Shown: piece by piece, positions 16,593 to 64,000 of the stretch | Position numbering within the stretch: the first letter of the stretch is position 1 | How the letters are laid out: each line of letters begins with the position of its first letter | Origin: Alphaproteobacteria bacterium | Lineage (GTDB): Bacteria; Pseudomonadota; Alphaproteobacteria; Bin95 | Length of the DNA stretch: 64,000 nucleotides | Reading direction: 5' to 3' | Assembly: GCA_963665325.3 (NCBI GenBank) | Contig: OZ224045.1 | Span: 1,856,001-1,920,000 of the forward strand | Position numbers and translations under genes: made by a program | Notes under the pieces: model-generated | Databases searched by the model: none | What the model was told of the DNA's origin: nothing | Seen by the model: only the letters and a program-made list of their open reading frames with translations

Positions 16593-16673
16593 GATTGTCG
16601 CGGCAGACCTGTGCGCTCTCGCCGCCTTTGTTCTTCCGCGATTGGTATACCGAGGCTTGACGGACTATCCCGG

Positions 16674-16820
16674 TGAACCGCGCCCGCCCGCGCGCGACAC
16701 GCGCAGCAAAGGAGGGCTGCGCCGGGGAGGCGGCCGCGCGGCTGAGATGGAACGAAACGCGATGGAGGAATGGTATCCAAGATGCGGGGTATGACAGAAA
16801 GAAACATTTCATGACGCATC
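16674..16820 (+). repeat. Degenerate, 5'-truncated copy (D) of the dispersed intergenic element
   Basis: GAACCGCGCC..GCCCGCGCGCGA.ACGCGC..CAAAGG shared with copy A; 16748-16770 matches 62947-62969 at 22/23 nt; ATGAC at 16791 and 16811. Confidence 0.6.
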
Positions 16821-16914
16821 GCAAGGGGGCCCGAATTTGTAACTCCTGATGACATCGCCGCGCGTCTCGATGAATATAGACCCCGACAGGCCCGAACAGC
16901 GAACCGGAGGCGTC

Positions 16915-17898
16915 ATGACTCTCAATGCCGAGCTCAGCCGCAGGATCTACACGGACATGTGGCGAATCCGCCTCTTCGAGGAGGAGGCTCTGCGCCAGAC
17001 CAACCTCGGCTCCGTGAAAGGAACGCTGCACACCTATTGCGGCGAGGAAGCGATCGCGGTCGCGGTATGCGCGCATCTGCGCGACGACGACTATGTGCTG
17101 GGCACCCATCGCAGCCACGGGCACTGCCTCGCCAAGGGCGCGCCGATGGACCGCATGATGGCGGAGCTGTTCGGGCGCACGACCGGCAGCTGCCGCGCCA
17201 AAGGCGGGTCCATGCACATCGCGGACTTCTCCCGCAACATCCTCGGCGCTAACGGCATCGTCGCCGGCGGCATCGGCCCCGGCACCGGCACGGCGCTCGC
17301 CAGCAAAATCCGCAAGAGTGACCAGGTGTCGGTCGTGTTCTTTGGCGACGGCGCGGCGGCGCGCGGCCCCTTTCATGAGGGTCTCCTGTTCGGTTCGCTC
17401 TGGAAGCTGCCGGTTATCTATGTCTGCGAGAACAACGGCTACCAGCAATGGGTGCCGCGCAGGAATGTCGCCGTGGTGGACTCGGTGGCCGACATGGCGG
17501 CGTCCTACGCCATTCCCGGCGTCTCGGTGGACGGGCAGGACCTGGAGGCGGTCTATGGCGCGGCGGAAGAGGCGGTCGCCCGCGCGCGGCGAGGCGAGGG
17601 CCCGACGCTGATCGAGGCGCGCACCTACCGCTTCTACGGCCACAGCCTGGGCGACATGGAGGAATACCGCTCGCGAGAGGAAGTCGACGACTGGCGCGAG
17701 AACCGCGACCCCATCAAGCTGTTCAGCGCGTGGATGAAGGAGCGCCAGTGGCTCGGCGACGACGAGGACGAGGCGATCCAGACGGAGGTGAAGGCGGAGA
17801 TCGTCAGGTCCGTGGCCTTCGCCGAGGAAAGCCCGCTGCCGAGCCCGGAGGACGTCATGACCGACGTGCTGGATGACGAATGGAGGGTTTCGGCATGA
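16915..17898 (+). CDS. TPP-dependent dehydrogenase E1 alpha subunit (AcoA/PdhA-like)
   Basis: THRSHGH, GGSMH, FFGDGA..ENN, TYRFYGHS; GGAGG RBS. Confidence 0.92.
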   Translation: MTLNAELSRRIYTDMWRIRLFEEEALRQTNLGSVKGTLHTYCGEEAIAVAVCAHLRDDDYVLGTHRSHGHCLAKGAPMDRMMAELFGRTTGSCRAKGGSMHIADFSRNILGANGIVAGGIGPGTGTALASKIRKSDQVSVVFFGDGAAARGPFHEGLLFGSLWKLPVIYVCENNGYQQWVPRRNVAVVDSVADMAASYAIPGVSVDGQDLEAVYGAAEEAVARARRGEGPTLIEARTYRFYGHSLGDMEEYRSREEVDDWRENRDPIKLFSAWMKERQWLGDDEDEAIQTEVKAEIVRSVAFAEESPLPSPEDVMTDVLDDEWRVSA

Positions 17899-18866
17899 GG
17901 ACCATCGCGCTGCGCGACGCGCTCCGGGAAGCGTTGCATGAGGAAATGGCCCGCGATGACAGCGTGTTCGTCATCGGCGAGGACGTGATCGCGCATGGCG
18001 GCCCCTACACCGTCACCCAGGGCATCGTGGACAAGTGGCCGGAGCGCATCTTCGAGACGCCGATTGCCGAGGCGGGCATAGTCGGTCTCGGCGTCGGCGC
18101 CGCACTCGCCGGCATGCGCCCGGTGGTCGAGATCATGTATGTCGATTTCATCACCTGCGCGATGGACGAGGTCGTCAACCAGGCGGCCAAGATGCGCTAC
18201 ATGACCGGCGGGCAGGCGAGCGTGCCCATCGTCATTCGCCTGCCTTGCGGCCCGGCCCGGCTGGTAGCGGCCCAGCATTCGCAGATCATGGAATCCTGGT
18301 TCATGCATGTGCCGGGCCTCCAGGTGGTGGCCCCGAGCACGCCCTACGATGCCAAGGGCCTGATGAAGACGGCGATCCGGAGCCCCGACCCGGTGGCGTT
18401 CTTCGAATACAAGGCGCTCTATGTGAGCGAGGGCGAGGTGCCGGAGGAGGACTATGTGATCCCGTTCGGCAAGGCCGACATCAAGCGGGAAGGCGAGGAC
18501 GCCACGGTCGTTGCCATCGGCGGCATGGTGCCCCGCGCGCTGGAAGCGGGCATCGCGCTTGAGGACGAGGGCTACGACATCGAGGTCGTGGACCCGAGGA
18601 CGCTTGCCCCGCTCGACATGGAGACGATCTGCGAATCCGTGCGTCGGACGGGCCGCGTGGTGGTCTGCGAGATGGACTCCTCCTTCGCCGGCACCGGCGC
18701 AGAGATCGCTGCGGCGCTCGCCGAGCAGTGCTTTCACGATTTGCGCGCGCCGATCGTGCGGGTCGGCAGCCCGCATGTGCCGATGCCGTTCGCCGAGGAA
18801 CTGGTGAACGTCACCGTGCCCGATGCCAAGGCAGTCGCGAAGGCGGTGCGGAAGGTCATGGCCTGA
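17895..18866 (+). CDS. TPP-dependent dehydrogenase E1 beta subunit
   Basis: GEDV, TPIAE, GMRPVVE, AAQHSQ, PSTPYDAKG. Confidence 0.93.
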   Translation: MRTIALRDALREALHEEMARDDSVFVIGEDVIAHGGPYTVTQGIVDKWPERIFETPIAEAGIVGLGVGAALAGMRPVVEIMYVDFITCAMDEVVNQAAKMRYMTGGQASVPIVIRLPCGPARLVAAQHSQIMESWFMHVPGLQVVAPSTPYDAKGLMKTAIRSPDPVAFFEYKALYVSEGEVPEEDYVIPFGKADIKREGEDATVVAIGGMVPRALEAGIALEDEGYDIEVVDPRTLAPLDMETICESVRRTGRVVVCEMDSSFAGTGAEIAAALAEQCFHDLRAPIVRVGSPHVPMPFAEELVNVTVPDAKAVAKAVRKVMA

Positions 18867-20035
18867 TGGCGGTCCGTCTCAGGCTCGCCGCGCTCGGCCA
18901 CACCATGGAGCGCGGCAAGGTCGTGGAGTGGTATGCGACCGAAGGCGCTCCGGTCGAACAGGGCGCGCCGCTCTATTCCGTCGAGACCGACAAGGCGACG
19001 GTCGATGTCGAGGCGCCGGCCGGCGGCGTGCTGCTGCGCATCGACGCCGATGTGGACCGGGAATACCCGGTCGGCGCCACGCTCGCCTGGATCGGCGAGA
19101 GCGGCGAGGACCTGCCGGAGAAGACGGACGAAACGGTCGCCGCGCCGGCGGCAGTATCGGACGACCAGCGGGTGACGCCCGTCGCGCGGCGTCTTGCGGA
19201 GCGGCGCGGCGTGGACGCCGACCGCTTGGCAGGCACCGGCCCCGGCGGGCGCGTCACCAAGGAAGACGTGCAGCGCGCCACCGACGCGGGCACCGCGCCG
19301 CCGCTGGAGAAGAAGGCGTCCGGCGAGCCCGAGCACGATGTCATCCCGCTGACCCCCATTCGGCGGGTGACGGCCGAGCGCCTCAGCGCCCATTGGGCCG
19401 GCGCGCCGCAGGTGACGGAAGGCATCGACATCGACATGACCGACATGCGCGCCTTCCGCAATGCCAGCCGCAGCGAATGGCGCACCGCCTACGGCCTCGT
19501 CCCCTCGCTCAACGACATCCTGCTGAAGGCGGTCGCGGCCGCGCTGGAGGCGCATCCGGCACTCAACTCGGCCTTCGTCGATGGCGAGGTCCACCGCTAT
19601 CGGGAGGTCAATCTGGGTGTGGCGGTCGATGTCGAGGACGGGCTGGTGGTGCCGGTGCTGCGCAATGCTGCAAAGCTCGGCCTCGGCCAGATCGCGACCG
19701 CCGCAGCCGATCTCGCCGAGCGAGCCAAGACGGGCAAGCTCTCCGTGCCGGATTTCGAGGGCGCGACCTTCACGGTCAGCAACCTGGCGGCGCTCGGCGT
19801 GGACTGGTTCACCCCGGTGCTGAACCCGCCGCAATGCGCCATCCTCGGCGTCGGCAGGATGCGGCGCATGCCCGCCGTCGTGCGGAACGAGGTCGCGGTC
19901 CGCGATATCGCCACTTTCGTTCTCACCTTCGACCACCGCGCGCTCGACGGCGCCCCCGCCGCCCGCTTCCTCGCAAGGCTCAAGCGCCTGCTGGAATCGC
20001 CGGATCCGTCGCTGTTCTCCGGGCCAGGCGGTTAA
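18866..20035 (+). CDS. Dihydrolipoamide acyltransferase E2
   Basis: Lipoyl ETDKA, E3-binding GTGPGGRV, catalytic DHRALDG. Confidence 0.92.
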   Translation: MAVRLRLAALGHTMERGKVVEWYATEGAPVEQGAPLYSVETDKATVDVEAPAGGVLLRIDADVDREYPVGATLAWIGESGEDLPEKTDETVAAPAAVSDDQRVTPVARRLAERRGVDADRLAGTGPGGRVTKEDVQRATDAGTAPPLEKKASGEPEHDVIPLTPIRRVTAERLSAHWAGAPQVTEGIDIDMTDMRAFRNASRSEWRTAYGLVPSLNDILLKAVAAALEAHPALNSAFVDGEVHRYREVNLGVAVDVEDGLVVPVLRNAAKLGLGQIATAAADLAERAKTGKLSVPDFEGATFTVSNLAALGVDWFTPVLNPPQCAILGVGRMRRMPAVVRNEVAVRDIATFVLTFDHRALDGAPAARFLARLKRLLESPDPSLFSGPGG

Positions 20036-20066
20036 CACGCACCGCATGCGGCCCTCGCGCTGAACG

Positions 20067-21098
20067 ATGCGGGCGAAGCAGCTAATCCACATTGTGAGCT
20101 GCCATGCTGAGGGTGAGGTGGGGGATGTCATCGTGGGCGGGGTGGCGCCGCCGCCGGGGGCAACGCTCTGGCAGCAGAGCCGGTTCATCGCGGAGGATGG
20201 CTGGCTGCGCGACGTGGTGCTGAACGAGCCGCGCGGCGGCGTCTTCCGCCATGTGAACCTGCTTGTGCCGCCGAAGGACCCGGCCGCGGCCATGGGCTTC
20301 ATCGTCATGGAGCCGGCCGACACGCCGCCCATGTCCGGCTCCAACGCCATATGCGTCGCGACGGTGCTGCTGGAGACCGGCATCGTGGCGATGGAGGAGC
20401 CGGAAACCCGCTTCCTGCTGGAGGCGCCGGGCGGGCCGGTCGAGGTCGTGGCGTCCTGCTGCGACGGCAAAGCGGAGCGGGTGCGGATACGCAACGTCCC
20501 CTCTTTCGCCGACCGCCTCGACGCGCCGCTCGAAGTCGAGGGCCTCGGCACGCTCAAGGTCGATACCGCCTATGGCGGCGACAGCTATGCCATCGTGGAT
20601 GCCCACGCACTCGGCTTCGCGCTCCGCCCGGACGAGGCGCGCGACCTCGCTGCCACCGGCATGCGTATCGTGCGGGCAGCAAACGAGCAGATCGGCTTCC
20701 GCCATCCCGAGCAGGCGGACTGGGCGCATATCTCCTTCTGCCAGTTTGCCGCCCCGCTCCAGTATCGCGAGGGCGTTCCGCACGGCCGCAATGCTGTCGC
20801 CATCCGGCCCGGCAAGATCGACCGCTCGCCCTGCGGCACCGGCTGTTCCGCCCGGCTCGCAACCCTGCATGCAAGGGGCGTTCTCGGCACGGGCGACGCC
20901 TTTGTCGGCGTGTCTCTCATCGACTCCCGCTTCGACTGCCGGATCGAAAGCGAGACGACGGTGGGCGGCCGCCCCGCCATCCTGCCCTCGCTCGCCGGCC
21001 GCGCCTGGATCACCGGCACGCACCAGGTCACGGTCGATCCCGACGATCCCTGGCCGCGCGGCTACCGCCTCAGCGACACCTGGCCGGACTATTGCTGA
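20067..21098 (+). CDS. Proline racemase-family protein (Ser/Cys active-site pair)
   Basis: [26 protein letters not shown]. Confidence 0.9.
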
Positions 21099-21125
21099 GC
21101 GGCGTGGCCGTAGAGACCCCCCGCA

Positions 21126-21640
21126 GATGTCATGAATTGTCATGTTTTGCATGCGCCGGGCGTATATTCCGTAGTCGTTTCAGGCATGAAGCTGTCCGCT
21201 CTTCGGCTTCCTCCCGCTTGCATTCACCGTCGCCCCGGCTTCCGAGCCGGAGCCCCCGCTTCCGACGCCGTCGAGACAGCGGGCGAGGGCTTCGGCGGCA
21301 GGCGCCAGCCTTGCGGCCAGCTTCGCCGCCAGTCCGGGGCGGGGGTCGGTTGCGGTCATCGGGTCTCCTCTTCCTTGTCGGTCCGGGAGCGGGCCGGCGG
21401 TTCCCTTTGCCGCGCGCGTTTCGCGCGCGGGCGTGCGTGCGCGTCGGCGCCGGCGCGGTTCGCGCGCCTGATTGCGCGCGCGAGGCGCAGGGCGCACCTT
21501 TCCTGTCGGCTTCTCGGGGGGTTTCAAAAAGGTGGCGCTGCGCAGCACCGGGGAAGCGGCTCCGGATGCCGCCTTCCCGATACCAGTCTAACACATTTTC
21601 TCACAGATCAAGAACATTAAGTGAACAATACAAGAAAATT
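21126..21640 (-). repeat. Copy A of dispersed promoter-structured leader-smORF-CATGACA element
   Basis: 21452-21499 matches the reverse complement of 62793-62840 at 45/48 nt; TGTCATG at 21128 and 21138; RBS plus ATG at 21359. Confidence 0.8.
21612..21626. promoter_or_regulatory. Alphaproteobacterial LexA (SOS) box
   Basis: GAAC-ATTAAGT-GAAC fits the GAAC-N7-GAAC consensus; adjacent to a minus-strand TTGATC and TGTTAGACT extended -10 (21593-21585). Confidence 0.65.
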
Positions 21641-21679
21641 CTAAAATGTCCCGTTCAAGCCGAACACCAGCCCCGAATT

Positions 21680-21732
21680 CGTCGCCCCGGCTTCCACGGG
21701 AACCTGGGTCCTCGCCGCTCGGGGGCGGGGAC
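21680..21732. repeat. REP-like palindromic repeat
   Basis: CGTCGCCCCGGCTTCC identical to 21228-21243; CCGCTCGGGGGCGGGGAC identical to 63107-63124. Confidence 0.55.
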
Positions 21733-21750
21733 AGGTGGGCGCCGGGGCGG

Positions 21751-22368
21751 CTATTGCGGACCGGTCTCCCGTCCGAGCAGCAGGCGGAGGCCGAGGCCGC
21801 CGAGGATGAGGGCGGCGGCGCGGTCGATATATCGTTTCGCGCGCATATAGCGTCTCGCGACGGCCTCCGTGCTCATGCAGAAGGCGAGCGCCGAATAGAA
21901 GACGACTTCCACGAGGAAGTGATTGGCGACGATGAACGCGCTGTCCCCGACGCCGAGGCCGGCCGGAAACACGGTGACGAGGACGGCGGCCGCGAAGAGC
22001 ACGGACTTCGGGTTGAGCAGGTTCACCAGGAAGCCTTGCCGGAAGGCGCGCTTCGCCGGCGCGGCTCTCGCCTCCGCCGGTGCGGACGAGTCCCTCCACA
22101 TCCGCCAGGCGAGCCAGATGAGATAGGCGGCGCCTGCGATCTTTGCCGCCGTATGGACCGCCGGGAACAGCCGGAAGACAGCGCCAAGGCCGAGCAGCGC
22201 CATTCCGGTCCACGCCGCCGCCATGGCGCCGAGGCCGATGCCAACCGCGACCCCCGCCCTTCGTCCCGCGCTCAGCGAGGTCTGCACCGCCATCAGCAGC
22301 GCCGGCCCCGGACTGGCGATCGCGGCCGCCAGCACGAGGTTGAAGGCAAGTATCTGTTCCAGCGTCAT
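21751..22368 (-). CDS. LysE family translocator
   Basis: SPGP, GAAYL, GFLVNLLNPK. Confidence 0.9.
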   Translation of the reverse strand: MTLEQILAFNLVLAAAIASPGPALLMAVQTSLSAGRRAGVAVGIGLGAMAAAWTGMALLGLGAVFRLFPAVHTAAKIAGAAYLIWLAWRMWRDSSAPAEARAAPAKRAFRQGFLVNLLNPKSVLFAAAVLVTVFPAGLGVGDSAFIVANHFLVEVVFYSALAFCMSTEAVARRYMRAKRYIDRAAALILGGLGLRLLLGRETGPQ

Positions 22369-22411
22369 GCGCCTTCCCTTTGCCGGTCCGACGGTGCCGC
22401 ATCCTTTGCGG

Positions 22412-22876
22412 TCACAGGTTCCCGTCCGTCCAGCGGCTCATGACCGTCCGCTCCTCGACCCCGTATCCGAGCCCTTCGTAAAACCGGCGCACCGCTTCGT
22501 TGTCCTCGCGGATCATCAGCATGACCTTGGGCGCTCCGGCCTCCGCGAGCCAGGCTTCGGCATGACGCATCAGCTTCTCGCCCAGACCCTGCGAGCGGTG
22601 CTCGGGCGCGACGGCGACATAATAGACCCAGCCCCTATGGCCTTCATATCCGGCCATGACGCTGCCCGCGATCCGTCCGCTGCTCTCTCTGGAGACTGCA
22701 ACGAATATGTCGGACGAGGCATTGGCACGTGCGCTCCCGATGTCTCGGAGCGGGTCGTTCCAGGGCCGCACCAGCCCGCAGGCGCGCCAGAGTTCCGCGA
22801 CCGCCTCCTCGTCTCCGTCGCGGATCGGGCGGATTGCGAACCCGGCCCTGCTCCCGCTTCCTTCGCTGCCCGGCAT
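22412..22876 (-). CDS. GNAT acetyltransferase (YpeA-like)
   Basis: GL.RPWNDP..DI, GYEGHRGWVYY, FYE.LGY. Confidence 0.88.
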   Translation of the reverse strand: MPGSEGSGSRAGFAIRPIRDGDEEAVAELWRACGLVRPWNDPLRDIGSARANASSDIFVAVSRESSGRIAGSVMAGYEGHRGWVYYVAVAPEHRSQGLGEKLMRHAEAWLAEAGAPKVMLMIREDNEAVRRFYEGLGYGVEERTVMSRWTDGNL

Positions 22877-22994
22877 CGCCCCCTCGCTCACACCCGTCGC
22901 GGCCCGATATTACGGCAGATACCGTCCACTGGCGCGCGGGCGCCGTTCGCGGCATCATCCGACCCTTCCCCATTGCCATCCGGAGGTCGGTCCC

Positions 22995-24212
22995 ATGGCT
23001 CGGCGCGGCATGAGTTTCGGCGTCTTCCTCGCTCCCTTCCATGCGCTCGGCGAGAACCCGACGCTTGCCATGGAACGGGACATGGAGCTGATCGAGTGGC
23101 TCGACCATCTGGGCTATGACGAGGCCTGGATCGGCGAGCACCATTCCGCCGGCTGGGAGATCATCGCCGCGCCGGAGATCTTCATCGGCGCCGCCCTCCA
23201 GCGCACCAAACACATCAGGCTCGGCTCGGGCGTGACCTCCTTGCCCTACCACCACCCGATGCTGGTGGCGCAGCGCTTCGTCCAGCTCGACCATATGAGC
23301 CGGGGACGCACCATGCTCGGCTGCGGGCCGGGCGCGCTGGTGACCGACGCCTACATGATGGGCATCGCGCCGACCGACCAGCGCCGGCGCATGATGGAGT
23401 CGCTGGAGGCCGTCATCGCGCTTCTGGAGTGCAAGGAACCGGTGACGATGGAGACCGACTGGTTCACGCTCCGGGAAGCGCGGCTGCATCTGGCGCCCTG
23501 GACCGAGGGCCGCTTCCCCATCGCCGTCGCCTCGACGATCACCCCCTTCGGCATGATGGCCGCCGGGCGCCACGGCATCGGCGTGCTGTCCATCGGGGCT
23601 GGCATTCCGGGCGGGCCGGAGATGCTGGCGAAGCAGTGGCAGATCGCGGAGGAGGAGGCCGCGAAGCACGGCAAGACCATGGACCGCAAGGACTGGCGGG
23701 TGGTCGTCAACATGCACCTTGCGGAGGACGACGAGGAGGCGCTGCGCCAGGTGAAGGCCGGCGAGCGGCTTGAGACCGTGACCTATTTCGAGGAGACGCT
23801 CGGCCGCCCGCCCGGCCGCGCCGACGATCCCGTGCGCGACGGCGTGAAGATGGGCACGACCCTGATCGGCTCGCCGGAGACCGCAATCAAGGGCATCGAA
23901 TACCTCCTCGAACTTTCGAAGGGCGGCTTCGGCGGCATCCTCTTCCGGGCGAACGAATGGGCGAACCGGGAAGACACGATGAAGAGCTACGAGCTGTTCG
24001 CCCGTTATGTGGCGCCTCGCTTCCAGGGCTCGATGGACACGCTCTACGGCTCCAACGCCTTCGTGCGCGAGAACCGGCTGCGCGTGCTGGAAGGCAATGT
24101 CGAGGCGGTCAAGCGCGCCTTCACCGATACCGGCCGCGAAGTCCCCGCCGGCTTCGAGGACCGCACGCTGGGCGCCGGCGACCTGCCGAAGGACAAGGAC
24201 GCGGCAGAGTAG
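22995..24212 (+). CDS. LLM class flavin-dependent monooxygenase (limonene monooxygenase-like)
   Basis: FG.FLAPFH, EAWIGEHHS.GWE, GV.SLPYHHP, GPGAL. Confidence 0.88.
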   Translation: MARRGMSFGVFLAPFHALGENPTLAMERDMELIEWLDHLGYDEAWIGEHHSAGWEIIAAPEIFIGAALQRTKHIRLGSGVTSLPYHHPMLVAQRFVQLDHMSRGRTMLGCGPGALVTDAYMMGIAPTDQRRRMMESLEAVIALLECKEPVTMETDWFTLREARLHLAPWTEGRFPIAVASTITPFGMMAAGRHGIGVLSIGAGIPGGPEMLAKQWQIAEEEAAKHGKTMDRKDWRVVVNMHLAEDDEEALRQVKAGERLETVTYFEETLGRPPGRADDPVRDGVKMGTTLIGSPETAIKGIEYLLELSKGGFGGILFRANEWANREDTMKSYELFARYVAPRFQGSMDTLYGSNAFVRENRLRVLEGNVEAVKRAFTDTGREVPAGFEDRTLGAGDLPKDKDAAE

Positions 24213-24264
24213 CGGTCACGGGGCTCGCACCATCCCCCTGTCGTGAACGGCGGACACAGCACAT

Positions 24265-25059
24265 ATGCCTCTGGCGCGGATCGAAGGCGGCGACATCCAT
24301 TACGAGGAGAGCGGCGGCGGCGCGGCGCTGGCGATGCTGCTGCCGCAAAGCGGCGGGCCGGTCGGCGTGCGTCCGTTCCTCGACCGGATGGCGGAGTGCT
24401 TCCGGGTCGTCCGCTACGATCAGCGCGGTACCGGCCGGAGCGCGCCGGTAGCAGCGCCCGAGGACATGACCATGACGGGCCGCGCCGGAGAGCTTGCCGG
24501 GCTTCTCGATGCGCTCGGGATCGGGAAGGCGCACCTGTTCTGCCATTCCACCGGCTGCGGTATCGGCCTTGCGTTCGCGGCCTCCCGCCCGGAGCGGGTG
24601 GCGGGGCTGGTCCTGGCGAATCCGTGGAGCCATGGCGACGTGCATCTGACGACCATGCAACGCCTGCGGGTGGCCGCCGCGCGTGCGCTCGACCCCTATC
24701 GTTATGCCTGGTTCAACGCCAGCCTGCTGTTCCCGCCCGACTACCGCCGCGCGCACACCGGGGCGTTCGAGGCGCTGGCAAGCAACGCCGCGCCGCAGGA
24801 CGCCGACGGAATCGAGGCCCGTCTGGAGGCGATCCTGGCCTTCGACGCCCGCCCGCTGGCGCCGGGCCTCTCCTGCCCCGTTCTGATAGCGACCGCTGCC
24901 GACGACCAGCTGATGCCGCCCTGGTTCGGCGCGGAGCTGGCGGCGTCGATTCCCGGCGCGGCCCATCTGGCGCTCGACGGCGGCGGCCATATGCTGCCGG
25001 AGACGCGCGCCGATGCGTTGGGCGAAGCGGTTATTGAATTCCTCGACGGCGTCGCCTGA
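24265..25059 (+). CDS. Alpha/beta hydrolase, RutD-like
   Basis: YDQRGTGRS, CHSTG, DDQL, GGH; RutD-like spacing. Confidence 0.75.
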   Translation: MPLARIEGGDIHYEESGGGAALAMLLPQSGGPVGVRPFLDRMAECFRVVRYDQRGTGRSAPVAAPEDMTMTGRAGELAGLLDALGIGKAHLFCHSTGCGIGLAFAASRPERVAGLVLANPWSHGDVHLTTMQRLRVAAARALDPYRYAWFNASLLFPPDYRRAHTGAFEALASNAAPQDADGIEARLEAILAFDARPLAPGLSCPVLIATAADDQLMPPWFGAELAASIPGAAHLALDGGGHMLPETRADALGEAVIEFLDGVA

Positions 25060-25084
25060 CCCGCCCGGACTCGCGGCCCTCCGC

Positions 25085-26473
25085 TCACGCCTCCGCCACT
25101 TCCTCGCTCAGGCGCACGACCACCGAATCGAGCCGGTCGACCGCCTCGTCGATCTCGCTGCGGTCGATGCAGAGCGGTGGCGCCACCGGGACGACATGGC
25201 CGCCGCGGCCGAGCATCCCGTGTTCCCGCATGAGCCGCACGACGCGCCCGTCCAGCCCGAACTCCTTCGGGAACTGCGCCCGCGTCCCGCGGTCCTTCAC
25301 CAGCTCGACGGCGCAGAGCAGCCCCATGCCGCCGCGCACATCGCCCACGATTTCGTGCTTGCGAAGCGTCTGGAGGCGCTCGAACAGGTAATCGCCCATC
25401 TCGCGGGAGCGCGCCGCCATGTTCTCGCCTTCCATGATGTCGAGATTGGCGAGCGCGGCGGCGCAGGAGGCCGGATTGCCCCCGAAGGTGATGAGATGCT
25501 GGAAGACCCGCTCCTCGCCGCCGGAGAAGGCGTCCGCGACCTTGCCCGTCGCGATCGTCGCGCCAATGGGCAGGTAGCCGCTGGTCAGTGCCTTGGCGAC
25601 GGTGAAGATGTCGGGCTTCACGCCCCACTGCTCCATCGCGAACATCTTCCCCGTCCGGCAGAAGCCGGTGATGACCTCATCGGCGATTAGCAGCACGCCG
25701 TAGCGGTCGCAGATCTCGCGCACCTGGGGCCAATAGTCCGGGTGCGGCACATGGATGCCCGCCGCCGCCGAGATCGGCTCGCCGATGAAGGCCGCCACCG
25801 TCGCCGGGCCCTCGTGCAGGATCGCCCGCTCGACGTCGCGGGCGCATTCCATGCTGCACGAGCCCGCGTCCGCGCACAGGTGGCAGCGCCAGGACGCCGG
25901 TTGGGCCACATGGATATTGCCCGGCACGAGCGGGCCGAAATGCATCGGCACGCTGCCGCCGCCCGGCCCGCCGCGCCCGAGGCTGGTGCAGGCGAGCGTG
26001 GCGCCGTGATAGGAGCCGCGCCGGGAGAGTACCTTCCAGCGCGTCGGCTCGCCGTTCAGGTGGTGGTAGTTCTTGGCGAGCTTGAGCGCCGTCTCATTCG
26101 CCTCCGAGCCGCCGCTCACGAAATAGACCCGCGCCGCTTCGTCCTGGCTGAGGCGGGCGAGACGGCCCGAAAGCTCCGCCGTTGCCGGGCTCACCGTGTC
26201 GCTCGGCGTGAAGGCAAGCTCCAGCATCTGGCGATAGACCGCATCGGCGATCTCCTGCCGGCCGTGGCCGATATTCACCAGCCAGAGCCCCGACATGGTA
26301 TCGAACCAGCGCTCCCCCTCGCCGTCCACCACCCACACCCCCTTGCCATGGGTGACGACCTGAAGGCCGGTCTTGCCCTCGACATTCCCCGCCGGACGGG
26401 AATGCGGCCAGAAATGATCCCTGGCGTCGGCGCGCGCCTTGTCGAGGTCGGGTGCGTTGGCGAAATCGGGCAT
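25085..26473 (-). CDS. Class III PLP aminotransferase
   Basis: [32 protein letters not shown]. Confidence 0.92.
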
Positions 26474-26645
26474 GGCGGGGGCCTCCCTGCTGGCGGCGCG
26501 GACTGTCGGCGAAAATTGCCGGGGGTTCGGGGACGCGCCGGGCCCGGCCCGCGCTCCGCGCTCCGTCGGCGTCCGCGCAGACTGTACCACCCGCCCCGAA
26601 GCCCGAACAGCGCACGTTCCCGTTCCGGACGGAGGAGGCCGGGGC

Positions 26646-27275
26646 CCACTCCAGCGGGATGTCATGAAGTGTCATGTTTCGTCATGGTCCGGTCTCCGCC
26701 TCGGCCGTTTCTGCGGATTCGGGGTCGTGCGCTCGCGGGGCATCGCGCCTCCTTTTCGCCGTCGACAGTCCCGGACACTCCCGCGGCGGCGGAGCGTCCC
26801 TGTTTCGCGCGTAACACGCGCGGGCGGGCGGGCGTGTCAGCGCCGGCGCGGTTCGCGCGCCTGATTGCCCGCGCGCCTGTGCGCGAGGCGGCGAGGGTCC
26901 ACTCCACCGGGATGTCATGTTTTGTCATGTTCCGGTTTCCATCCCCGGGCGTTCGCGCCGGTCCGCGGGTCGTCCATCGTGCATCGCAGCCTCCTTTCAT
27001 CACCGGTTTCCTCCGCTCCCCGGGCCGGGGGCGCGTCCCCGCCTCACGCGTACCGTGTGTGCGGGCCTGCGGGCGGGCGCGCAAGCCAAGCCAGGCGCAG
27101 GGCGCACCCGTCCCGTCCGCTCGCGCCGGGGAATTTGCGGCGCCCGGCCATCGCTTCCCTGCGCAGAAAAGCCGAAAGGCGACCCCGGACGCCGCCTCTC
27201 CCTACGCCCATAATAGCACAGAATTCCTCAGGCCGAGCATGATTTAGGAAATATTACGGGATAATTGTGAACGAA
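26646..27275 (-). repeat. Copy B of the dispersed element, two units in tandem
   Basis: CCACTCCA.CGGGATGTCATG at 26646 and 26899; two AAGGAGG+ATG sites (26984, 26743); conserved hairpins at 27174-27200, 27093-27109 and 26853-26876; TGCTATTAT extended -10 at 27218-27210. Confidence 0.8.
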
Positions 27276-27430
27276 CCGCTGTAAGTCGTCTCAATCCAGG
27301 TCCTTCCGCCGGGGACGGTCTTCTCGGCGGCGTGTCCCGTGGGAGTCGGTGCGGCAAGGCTCGGCATACAGAAGGAACCTTCGCTCCGAGCCGCAGCTCT
27401 CGAGCGACTACCACATCCGTATGTACTTCG

Positions 27431-62639: not shown

Positions 62640-63220
62640 TTTGTTCCAGGAATTATGAAATAATTCTCCATAAAGGCTAGACGTCAGGGCAACCAGCCAC
62701 TATATAGGACTACACGGAGCGGCATCCGGAGGCCGCCCCGTCCTCCGCGTCGGCGCCGGCGCGAAAAAATGCCCCTGAGAAACGCATGGGAGAGGTGCGT
62801 CCTGCGTCTCGCGCGCGCAATCAGGCGCGCGAGCCGCGCCGCCGCGAAGCGCGCGCGGGCGGGCACAGGCGCGGCTCGCGCAGGATACGCGCGAATCAGG
62901 GTCCCGCCGCACCGGGAAGCCGGGCGGAGGGACGAACGGAACGGAGTGGAACGAATCGCGATGGAGGAACGATCATGCAGCATACCCCTCTCCGTCACCC
63001 CGGCCGGAGGTCCGCATGCCTCTTGCGTCACCCCGGACGGCGCGCCAGCGCCGAGCCGGGGTCTCCGGACGAAGGGTTGCCCTTGTTGCACGAAGCCCCG
63101 GCTTCCCCGCTCGGGGGCGGGGACGGGCGCGGTCCTGGGCGACGCAAAGGGAACGCGCACCTGCATCCTGAGCAGTTACAATAGGATATGAGCCATCCGC
63201 ATGCGGATCATGACATCTCT
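62640..63220 (+). repeat. Copy C of the dispersed element
   Basis: Promoter, GCGGCATCCGGA hairpin, 48-nt core, GGAGG plus ATG 62975, GCATGC..CATGACATCT tail shared with copy A. Confidence 0.8.
62677..62705 (+). promoter_or_regulatory. Sigma70-type promoter of element copy C
   Basis: CTAGAC-N17-CTATAT, one mismatch to the rhizobial RpoD consensus CTTGAC-N17-CTATAT. Confidence 0.6.
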
Positions 63221-63234
63221 CGAGTAACTAACGC

Positions 63235-64000
63235 TCACGCCATGGCCCTATCACCATCGGGCGCTTGCATGTCCTGGGCGGGGTGGATCAGTTGGTAGCC
63301 GAGGGTTCGAGCCTTGCGCCGCAGGTTGGCGAGGGAACGGTCGATGCGCCGTTTTTCGTAGGCTTGCATGCCTTTTTCGACATATTGCTCACCCCGCGTC
63401 ACTATCAGATAGATCAGGCAAGCCAGTTCGCGGGCGGTCGCGGTTATCGCGACGGGAGTGTCCTTTCGGGCGAGCCGGGCGCGATGTTTGGCGCCGATGA
63501 AGGTCTGGCTCCTTCGTGCCGACATGGCTGCCATGCGCAGGGCCTGTCCGACCGGGTTGACCACCTTGTGCGTCCGGCCCGGCAAAGGCTTGCCGCCGCT
63601 GATCCTGGTGCCCGGCGCCACCCCCAGCCAGGAGCAGAAGTGTTGGGCGGAAGGGAAGGCGGAGAAGTCCGGGCCGATCTCGGAAGCGATCGTCAGAGCG
63701 GTTCCGGGACCGATGGTCGGGATCGCGGTCAGGTCGGTGCCCATCATGGCGGTCAGGGCCACGGTCAACGCCTTGTCGGTCATGGGGCCGACCGCGCGGA
63801 GTGTTTCGTGGGATGCGTCACCGCCGCCCGGCCCGTCCGGTGGCGTCAGATCGTCGATCTGCTCCGCGATCCGCGCCTCGCAGTCCTCGATCTGCCGGTC
63901 GAGGAAGTCATAGCGCTGCACGGCCTGCTCCAGGGCGAAGAGATGCTCCTCGCGCCAGGTGCCTTCCAGGCTCGCGGCGATTGTGTCCGCGCTGGCCTTG
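63235..64000 (-). mobile_element. IS110 family transposase (C-terminal part; runs off the window)
   Basis: SLEGTWREEHLF.L, IPTIG, SEIG.D.S.FPSA.HF.SWLG..P....SGGK, A.TA.AR.LA...Y; frame open to the window end. Confidence 0.92.

Follow-up and report, generated by a model that had tools for sequence, protein, structure and literature searches.

Dispersed modular cassettes with phased CATGACA tails in a genus of sponge-associated Alphaproteobacteria: a candidate terS-with-binding-site module multiplied along the chromosome

The Correia elements of Neisseria and the BOX elements of pneumococci are modular, promoter-bearing repeats that are dispersed in dozens of intergenic copies, can drive neighbouring genes and form RNA hairpins. 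Correia elements are approximately 100-150 bp long, with inverted ends and a TA duplication. In enterobacteria, ldr and further type I toxin-antitoxin loci are repeats of approximately 500 bp, in which a very small ORF follows a promoter and a long structured 5' leader. Phage-inducible chromosomal islands that have their own TerS are larger (5-15 kb) and include an integrase and replication genes, while lateral transduction proceeds from pac sites in the chromosome.

In pac phages, the gene for the small terminase and the site at which the protein acts can be part of the same sequence. Excerpts of PMC6316719 describe the pac region of phage SPP1 as overlapping the promoters, the ribosome-binding site (RBS) and the 5' part of terS, and the terminase protein gp1 as binding to both flanks of the cut site. 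By its title, reference 69 of the same paper reports that the terminase represses its own synthesis.

Here, a window of 64,000 nucleotides from an alphaproteobacterial genome was analysed. It contains two nearly whole units of a dispersed repeat (A and C), one tandem partial pair (B) and one fragment (D), as listed in Table 1. A prior, sequence-only reading had assigned the same ordered modules to all four intergenic gaps. This is correct for units A and C, in each of which an AT-rich promoter-like region is followed by a GCGGCATCCGG hairpin and the core, and these by a Shine-Dalgarno site with ATG, a variable part and CATGACA. It does not apply to B, which is made up of split partial units, or to D, which lacks the promoter and hairpin and is located directly 5' of a gene on the same strand. 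The CATGACA repeats that had been attributed to C are also only partly present, as a single heptamer is left inside the window due to insertion of an IS110-family element (DEDD_Tnp_IS110, 9.6e-22; Transposase_20, 5.5e-14); the rest of the tail is found approximately 2 kb further on, beyond the window. Two other mobile elements insert into units: this IS110-family element and an integrase-bearing island, which is present in the third leader block of two other copies. The 48-nt core pattern has exactly two matches in the window, in A (21452-21499, minus strand) and in C (62793-62840, plus strand), and none in 100 shuffles. In unit A, three conserved leader blocks lie between the T-run of hairpin H2 and the Shine-Dalgarno site. 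The ends of the family were set on five recent copies, with TTGTTC on the left and a point approximately 12-15 nt past the last CATGACA on the right.

Table 1. Features of the dispersed units in the window (position 1 is the first nucleotide of the window).
Feature	Position	Strand	Remarks
Unit A, whole unit	21115-21628	minus	A-type copy in decay; its ORF is a 59-aa remnant
Unit A, left-end motif TTGTTC	21623-21628	minus	
Unit A, promoter-like region	21585-21611	minus	TTGATC, 15 nt, TG-n-TAGACT
Unit A, hairpin H1	21550-21578	minus	GGGAAGGCGGC-ATCCGGA-GCCGCTTCCCC; predicted 5' end of the transcript; fold and compensatory change
Unit A, hairpin H2	21526-21549	minus	T-run directly after it; terminator-like in A-type units
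Unit A, conserved leader blocks	21447-21515	minus	Include the near-invariant GCAATCAGGCGCGCGAACCGCGCCGGCGC
Unit A, third conserved leader block	21396-21426	minus	Reads GATACGCGCGAAACAGGGTCCCGCC in other units
Unit A, Shine-Dalgarno site (GGAGA) and 59-aa ORF (MTATDPRP...)	21180-21374	minus	Truncated remnant of a 150-190 aa A-type gene
Unit A, tail	21128-21144	minus	Two CATGACA, spaced 10 nt
Unit B	26648-27276	minus	Two tandem partial units, B1 and B2
Unit B1			Promoter, H1, 5' leader, ORF and 2 heptamers (26914-26929); without the AATCAGG core
Unit B2			Core (26845-26868), ORF and 3 heptamers (26661-26686); without promoter
Unit C	62641-63218	plus	TTGTTC, promoter-like region, H1, H2, core (62817-62840)
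Unit C, Shine-Dalgarno site and ATG	62963-62977	plus	
Unit C, sole CATGACA	63209-63215	plus	Tail cut here by insertion
IS110-family element in the tail of unit C	63219-64000	minus	Foreign to the unit; extends past the window end
Unit D	16675-16816	plus	3' fragment only: core end, pre-ORF block, degenerate heptamers 20 nt apart

The genome of the window (G000; 5.58 Mb in five contigs) was searched with nhmmer, iterated from the core of unit A. This produced 68 cores: 29 on contig C1, 18 on C3, 16 on C4, five on C5 and none on C2, in agreement with the expectation, drawn from the window, of many copies per genome. The units have a median length of 498 bp (range 386-1387) and are arranged in the order TTGTTC, AT-rich promoter-like region, two 5' hairpins, GC-rich core, Shine-Dalgarno site with ORF, and CATGACA tail. 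The leader is approximately 200-250 nt long, opens with the two hairpins and contains the GC-rich core, which is invariant in sequence. Between two and eight phased copies of CATGAC make up the tail in 62/68 units, with three copies in 29 and four in 16. Across the genome, neighbouring CATGAC pairs are exactly 10 nt apart in 157 instances, compared to 0-6 for each other spacing from 5 to 16 nt, so that the phasing first noticed in the window is far above chance. As a result of the 10-nt period, TGA and ATG fall in all three frames. The first ORF preceded by a Shine-Dalgarno site stops at the TGA of a heptamer in 50 of 61 cases.

The 40 relatives searched include 16 further species from the genus, of which 14 have many copies; other genera gave single weak matches only (E 1e-4 to 1e-3). 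A scan of one genome per species detected at least 98 stretches with the family pattern, nearly all of them in metagenome-assembled Alphaproteobacteria. Exact matches to the core number 53 in G000, 43 in G009, 75 in G005 and 77 in G013, with a single match in G012, where the core has diverged. In contigs of four DNA metagenomes that contain the organism, the core bin has 30-100x the depth of its flanks. Unit DNA had no match to plasmids, and no description of the family was found in the literature searched. The best reading is a genus-restricted and previously undescribed family of modular dispersed cassettes in sponge-associated Alphaproteobacteria.

The position of units differs between species. 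Unit A sits between two convergent genes, and its site is empty in seven related species, in which 0-13 bp separate the flanking genes and the C-terminus of the right-hand gene is a different one. The site is filled in five genomes: that of the window and, with an A-type unit, G005, G007, G008 and G015. Usable flanks were available for 55 foreign units, and for 26 of these both flanks lie on one G000 contig: nine (seven distinct sites) are empty in G000, seven are shared and 10 are ambiguous. The comparison of filled and empty orthologous sites, proposed when the units were first noticed, thus revealed both kinds between species, and units appear to be gained and lost at different chromosomal sites. 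The junctions are fuzzy, with flank identities of 80-90%, and the difference at any one site may reflect insertion or deletion. Units also lie at rearrangement breakpoints.

The statement that there is no transposase, terminal inverted repeat or target duplication holds for the copies and sites examined. Terminal inverted repeats are not present in the five recent copies, where TTGTTC and the tail ends are not inverted copies of one another. Similarly, a short target duplication is seen neither at the unit A site nor at nine further filled/empty pairs, whose flanks have diverged by 10-20%. One insertion (L051) is flanked by a 146-bp target duplication, which fits no simple model. A Y1 transposase (PF01797) was not found in G000, with control matches in 6/14 genomes, and the search for a Y2 transposase (PF04986) gave no matches, with its control likewise silent in all 14 genomes. 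The GTTC of the left end shows no more than a resemblance to IS91/ISCR-type ends. A search for full-length copies enclosing a recombinase had been proposed; the larger copies hold a small-terminase-like gene or a gene of 150-190 aa instead.

The ORFs carried as cargo belong to several lineages. Five units of G000 have an intact ORF of 326 aa, of which residues 11-80 match positions 2-71 of the 141 in the Terminase_2 profile (PF03592; E 2.4e-12, 48.1 bits versus a cut-off of 26.1), and G000 has no Terminase_2 match beyond these five stand-alone units. The protein also matches phrog_51 (3.5e-14) and has 360 homologues, the few named of which are called terminase small subunit. The AF2 model (mean pLDDT 60.6) is confident for the N-terminal helices only, and the C-terminal half is long, acidic and partly disordered. 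The best Foldseek matches are an SF6/SPP1-like small terminase and its DNA-binding domain (4zc3, 2cmp). Foldseek aligned the DNA-binding domain to that of G1P with 41-42% identity over 55-56 residues and a TM of 0.85. The N-terminal domain of the 326-aa protein is predicted to be a DNA-binding domain of the SPP1/SF6 small-terminase type. Among four of the five G000 copies, dN/dS ranges over 0.03-0.10 in residues 1-110 and over 0.23-0.65 in the remainder, and dS is 0.06-0.33. These values indicate that the genes are under purifying selection and are not fresh duplicates.

The terminase-like gene is multicopy in 13/17 genomes of the genus, with five to 11 or more copies per genome, and the copies tend to be more alike within a genome than between genomes. 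The gene lies inside a unit at all 14 loci inspected, which cover G000 and nine other species; at one of them, in G008, the ORF is not followed by a tail. A second lineage (MTATDPRP..., or A-type) encodes 150-190 aa when intact. Unit A is a truncated member of this lineage, and its orthologue in G008 retains a long A-type ORF. The A-type protein has no Pfam family and no Atlas match at or above 0.9, and matches phrog_24956 only, with an E-value of 0.013. In the other small ORFs, nucleotide blocks are shared while the reading frame varies from copy to copy, and conservation at the protein level is improbable.

A link between the terminase-like gene and the tail came from comparison of genomes. 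Each of the 13 genomes with the gene has 33-171 triple heptamer arrays, compared to 0, 0, 0 and 9 in the four gene-less genomes. G009 has its 43 cores and no terminase-like gene, and 20 of its units were compared to 20 from G005, which has 11 or more copies of the gene. The mean number of exact CATGAC copies is 1.55 in G009 and 4.15 in G005; at least two phased heptamers are present in 7/20 versus 18/20 units, and at least three in 3/20 versus 16/20. The heptamers of G009 are mutated, for example to CATGGC, CACGAC or CGTGAC, while the promoter pattern is kept in 20/20 units. This comparison, which is one natural experiment with one informative genome because the G009 units form a single homogeneous and non-independent subfamily, shows that the tail decays where the terminase-like gene is missing and that the promoter and leader persist. 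As G009 has approximately 40 copies of this subfamily and no terminase-like gene, the promoter and leader can be kept, and perhaps also spread, in the absence of the protein.

The explanation favoured here, with a probability of roughly 0.55, is that the family is a multiplied terS-with-binding-site module, whose modular cassettes end in a phased tail to which the terminase-like protein probably binds, judging by analogy to phage small terminases. Each unit would be a self-contained expression unit consisting of a promoter-like site, a leader, a Shine-Dalgarno site with ORF and the phased tail. The terminase-like protein, as an oligomer, would bind to the helically phased CATGACA array, and the unit may act like the terS-with-site module of a pac phage, either in self-regulation or in DNA marking. 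Most units, including A to D, would be deletion-decayed derivatives in which the cis parts were kept. If binding to the tail is true, this is the first case known to the authors of a packaging-recognition module multiplying as a chromosomal repeat. A further and tentative step is to view the family as a new class of selfish or domesticated element, in which a small-terminase-type binder replaces the transposase and binds as a ring to the phased array and perhaps to the leader core. The units could then provide some 50-100 packaging or recombination landmarks per genome, which spread with, hijack or sabotage phage packaging in sponge symbionts.

The promoter and leader were analysed separately from the tail. 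The recurring promoter-like pattern is TTGAC, a 15-nt spacer and (T/C)ANNAT, which a loose regular expression finds in 32/68 units compared to 0.4 expected in shuffles. A second such expression finds 34/68 units; in these, the spacer is 15 nt in 28/34 and a TG lies two bases before the second hexamer in 32/34. This arrangement, a 15-nt spacer with TG before a -10-like hexamer, resembles the housekeeping consensus of Caulobacter, itself an alphaproteobacterium. A scan for E. coli-type promoters found no site in unit A, and only 7/68 units pass. Units would be transcribed from the predicted promoter-like site. Both this site and the AT-rich tract are upstream of the predicted start and yet are repeated with the unit, which argues against copying via RNA. 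The SINE-like route that had been suggested for the family fits poorly.

RNA structure was assessed on an alignment of 45 sequences from several genomes, using a hand-drawn structure and pair counts. Compensatory change affects 3/7 pairs of hairpin 1, where 90.7% of cells are paired, and 3/5 pairs of hairpin 2. There are 25 compensatory cells versus 11.3 +/- 2.7 in shuffles, a number reached by 0/500 shuffles, and the unit A leader has a more stable fold than its shuffles (z -2.53). The RNAalifold consensus on the 45 units is weak, at -14.1 kcal/mol. The core hairpin and long-range pairs are invariant in the alignment and hence uninformative on pairing. Most rows had been picked by the exact core pattern, which inflated the apparent conservation of the core; in the G000 copies found by nhmmer, the core block is likewise nearly unchanged. 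The 5' hairpins have the appearance of genuine RNA or DNA structure, and the core is conserved as sequence, where gene conversion among copies could mimic selection. The designation "structured RNA" in the sequence-only reading is accordingly borne out only in part, by compensatory changes in the two 5' hairpins and not by the 48-nt core, which has almost no informative variation. At gathering thresholds, Rfam 15 has no match in the whole window; in E-value mode, four matches to unit A scored 11.8-16.2 bits versus thresholds of 52-100, which is noise, and the units remain, as first stated, without assignment to an Rfam family.

These data bear on the strongest of the alternatives, which is that the units are a family of host regulatory RNAs. 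Here, each unit would produce an sRNA or dual-function mRNA of approximately 200-450 nt, the core of which base-pairs with targets or is bound by a host protein. The ORF and tail would serve solely for translation and termination, and changes in copy number would result from duplication and loss. The compensatory cells and the fold of the unit A leader are as expected of such an RNA, and so are the conserved promoter-like site directly upstream and the persistence of promoter and leader in G009 despite decay of the tail. The insertion of a tyrosine integrase in the leader also fits, as these enzymes often use tRNA or sRNA genes as insertion sites. However, the near absence of covariation in the core, the weak consensus fold and the lack of an Rfam match speak against this explanation. 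In addition, species differ at roughly half of the sites that could be resolved, and some units carry selected protein genes. On balance, a host RNA family is unlikely.

A second alternative is that the unit is a portable promoter and translation-start cassette, which drives the downstream gene, may be translationally coupled to it, and passes ribosomes on by means of the three-frame tail. This would account for the ATG and TGA in all three frames of the tail, for the downstream neighbour being on the same strand in 42/62 units, and for the many genes that begin no more than 150 nt past the tail. Between co-oriented genes, 28 units are oriented with the genes and three against them, as determined with a crude gene caller, and unit D directly precedes a gene. 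The same orientation bias is predicted equally by selection against antisense transcription, however, and 20/62 units, A and C among them, face a convergent gene. Moreover, each downstream gene that was inspected has a Shine-Dalgarno site and a start of its own, and neither the invariant leader core nor the terminase-like gene would be explained. This makes a promoter cassette quite improbable.

The third alternative shares the phage connection of the favoured explanation. In this instance, the units would be dispersed pac-like sites in the chromosome that recruit the terminase of an infecting or resident phage, acting as a decoy that spoils packaging or leading to the transduction of host DNA. 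The DNA-binding domain belongs to the SPP1/SF6 G1P type, phased repeats would suit a ring-shaped binder, and every large replicon carries approximately one unit per 69-89 kb. The spacing is no more regular than random placement, though, with a coefficient of variation of the gaps of 0.73-0.84. The layout of the SPP1 pac region, as far as it is given in the excerpts of PMC6316719, resembles that of the unit. Against packaging sites, no large terminase adjoins any copy, and the sole Terminase_6N of G000, at C1:484 kb, is far from all five terminase-like genes. The neighbours of that gene were read as Mu-like prophage genes. There are no matches in G000 for PF04466, PF03354 or the HK97-type capsid family, and PADLOC returned no families for the terminase-like and A-type proteins at E <= 0.1. 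Relatives in phages are distant: phage records gave N-terminal matches only, covering 22-36% of the length of the terminase-like protein, and three distant loci match it in viral contigs. As G009 leaders also persist without the protein, the packaging-site explanation is highly doubtful.

Finally, an ordinary, already described repeat is very improbable: although the units are multicopy, intergenic, GC-rich and palindromic, a MITE or other IS-derived element is rejected by the lack of terminal inverted repeats and of a short target duplication, an IS200/IS605 PATE or REPIN by the lack of a Y1 transposase in G000, an integron cassette by the promoters and the dispersal, and a type I toxin-antitoxin locus by hydrophilic, non-conserved peptides that are rich in R, K, P and G, change frame between copies and include no conserved hydrophobic toxin, and no matching description was found in the literature searched.

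Whichever explanation applies, the units are the dominant repeat across a whole genus of sponge-associated Alphaproteobacteria. They amount to an estimated 0.6% of the G000 genome (68 units at a median of approximately 500 bp). They break short-read assemblies, and they place strong promoter-like sites as well as three-frame starts and stops beside housekeeping genes.

Under the favoured explanation of a multiplied terS-with-binding-site module, the nearest described system is the terS-pac region of SPP1 and SF6 (gp1/G1P). The likeness lies in the N-terminal DNA-binding domain and, as far as the SPP1 excerpts describe it, in a site region that overlaps the promoter, the RBS and the start of terS. 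Unlike SPP1 and SF6, the units have no large terminase gene after the terS-like gene, and the latter encodes 326 aa with the long acidic, partly disordered C-terminal half. Furthermore, there are five to 11 or more copies of the gene in a genome together with dozens of ORF-less units, the CATGACA array is 3' of the gene instead of 5', and the units are located in cellular chromosomes among housekeeping genes.

The units can also be set beside bacterial repeats and islands. By description, they are like Correia and BOX elements in being modular, in having dozens of intergenic copies and hairpins, and in that they may drive neighbouring genes. In contrast to Correia elements, they are 0.4-1.4 kb long and have neither inverted ends nor a duplication, and, unlike both Correia and BOX, they carry a Shine-Dalgarno site with an ORF, which in the master copies is a selected protein gene. 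The resemblance to ldr loci consists of a repeat of approximately 500 bp with a promoter-like site, a long 5' leader and a small ORF; the units, however, encode basic or hydrophilic peptides whose reading frame changes between copies, and they are ten times as numerous. With phage-inducible islands and lateral transduction, the units share a chromosomal small terminase and a cognate site, predicted here, in host DNA. They differ from the islands in that a unit of 1.4 kb has no other gene and most copies are without the terS-like gene.

The tail of phased CATGACA heptamers with which the units end seems to be the preferred target of an IS110-family element. Within unit C, a plus-strand unit of the window, it interrupts this tail after CATGACATCTCT. 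A second copy of the element, found near C1:1706700-1708400 of the same genome (G000) and sharing 99.7% identity across 1,687 bp, occupies the identical tail position in a different unit. The heptamer tail of unit C4_319846- (named by contig, position and strand) is also divided, here by an insertion sequence whose duplication reads AAACATGA.

Other insertions are found in the leader. The same island splits two units at one point within the third leader block, between GCGATAC and CGC. The first gene of this island encodes a tyrosine integrase with an Arm DNA-binding domain, so that the unit leader acts as an attachment site. Between leader and ORF, in the part that varies, several G000 units (e.g. 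C4_243151+, C4_746715- and C1_684917-) contain one to four tandem copies of a repeat of approximately 50 nt, GGCGGCG.CAACGCCGCCAT.TGCAATGTTCGCCGCGTTCGGCGCGGCGGCG.

Mobile elements and phage-like DNA associated with the units or present in the same genome (G000)
Feature	Location	Unit or locus	Characteristics
IS110-family element	window 63219-64000, continuing to about G000 C1:1921200	unit C	~2 kb; DEDD_Tnp_IS110 + Transposase_20
Integrase island in third leader block	G000 C1:777034 and C4:14414	units C1_777034+, C4_14414-; locus L143	
Insertion sequence in heptamer tail	G000 C4:317000-319850	unit C4_319846-	inverted ends; 8-bp duplication
Prophage-like region	G000 C1:470000-498000		large terminase (Terminase_6N); many phage-sized genes

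Units may also be involved in rearrangement of the window. In related species, the genes to the right of gap B adjoin, in inverted orientation, the genes that lie at about window position 19600, and because of this the segment that separates D (+) from B (-), both partial units, within 16600-27300 of the G000 window, looks to be inverted. Such an inversion could have arisen via recombination between units. Separately, unit A is set apart from the stop codon of the upstream gene by approximately 110 bp (window 21640-21750; GTCGCCCCGGC...) that are GC-rich and REP-like; this sequence is missing from the orthologous filled site of a related species' genome (G008).

The Terminase_6N gene of the prophage-like region, which we take to be Mu-like, is the sole large-terminase match in G000. 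One unit, at locus L052, sits on a contig from a metagenome bin that carries the label Bryobacterales. No other holder has such an assignment, and a binning error is the probable cause.

Finally, when locus L051 of another genome is compared to G000 C4:958880-959330, the terminase-type unit found there (one with a small-terminase-like gene) has the same 146 bp of target on both sides, and the duplicated target corresponds to the 3' end of a gene in convergent orientation. In contrast, transposase-type duplications are all far shorter than this.
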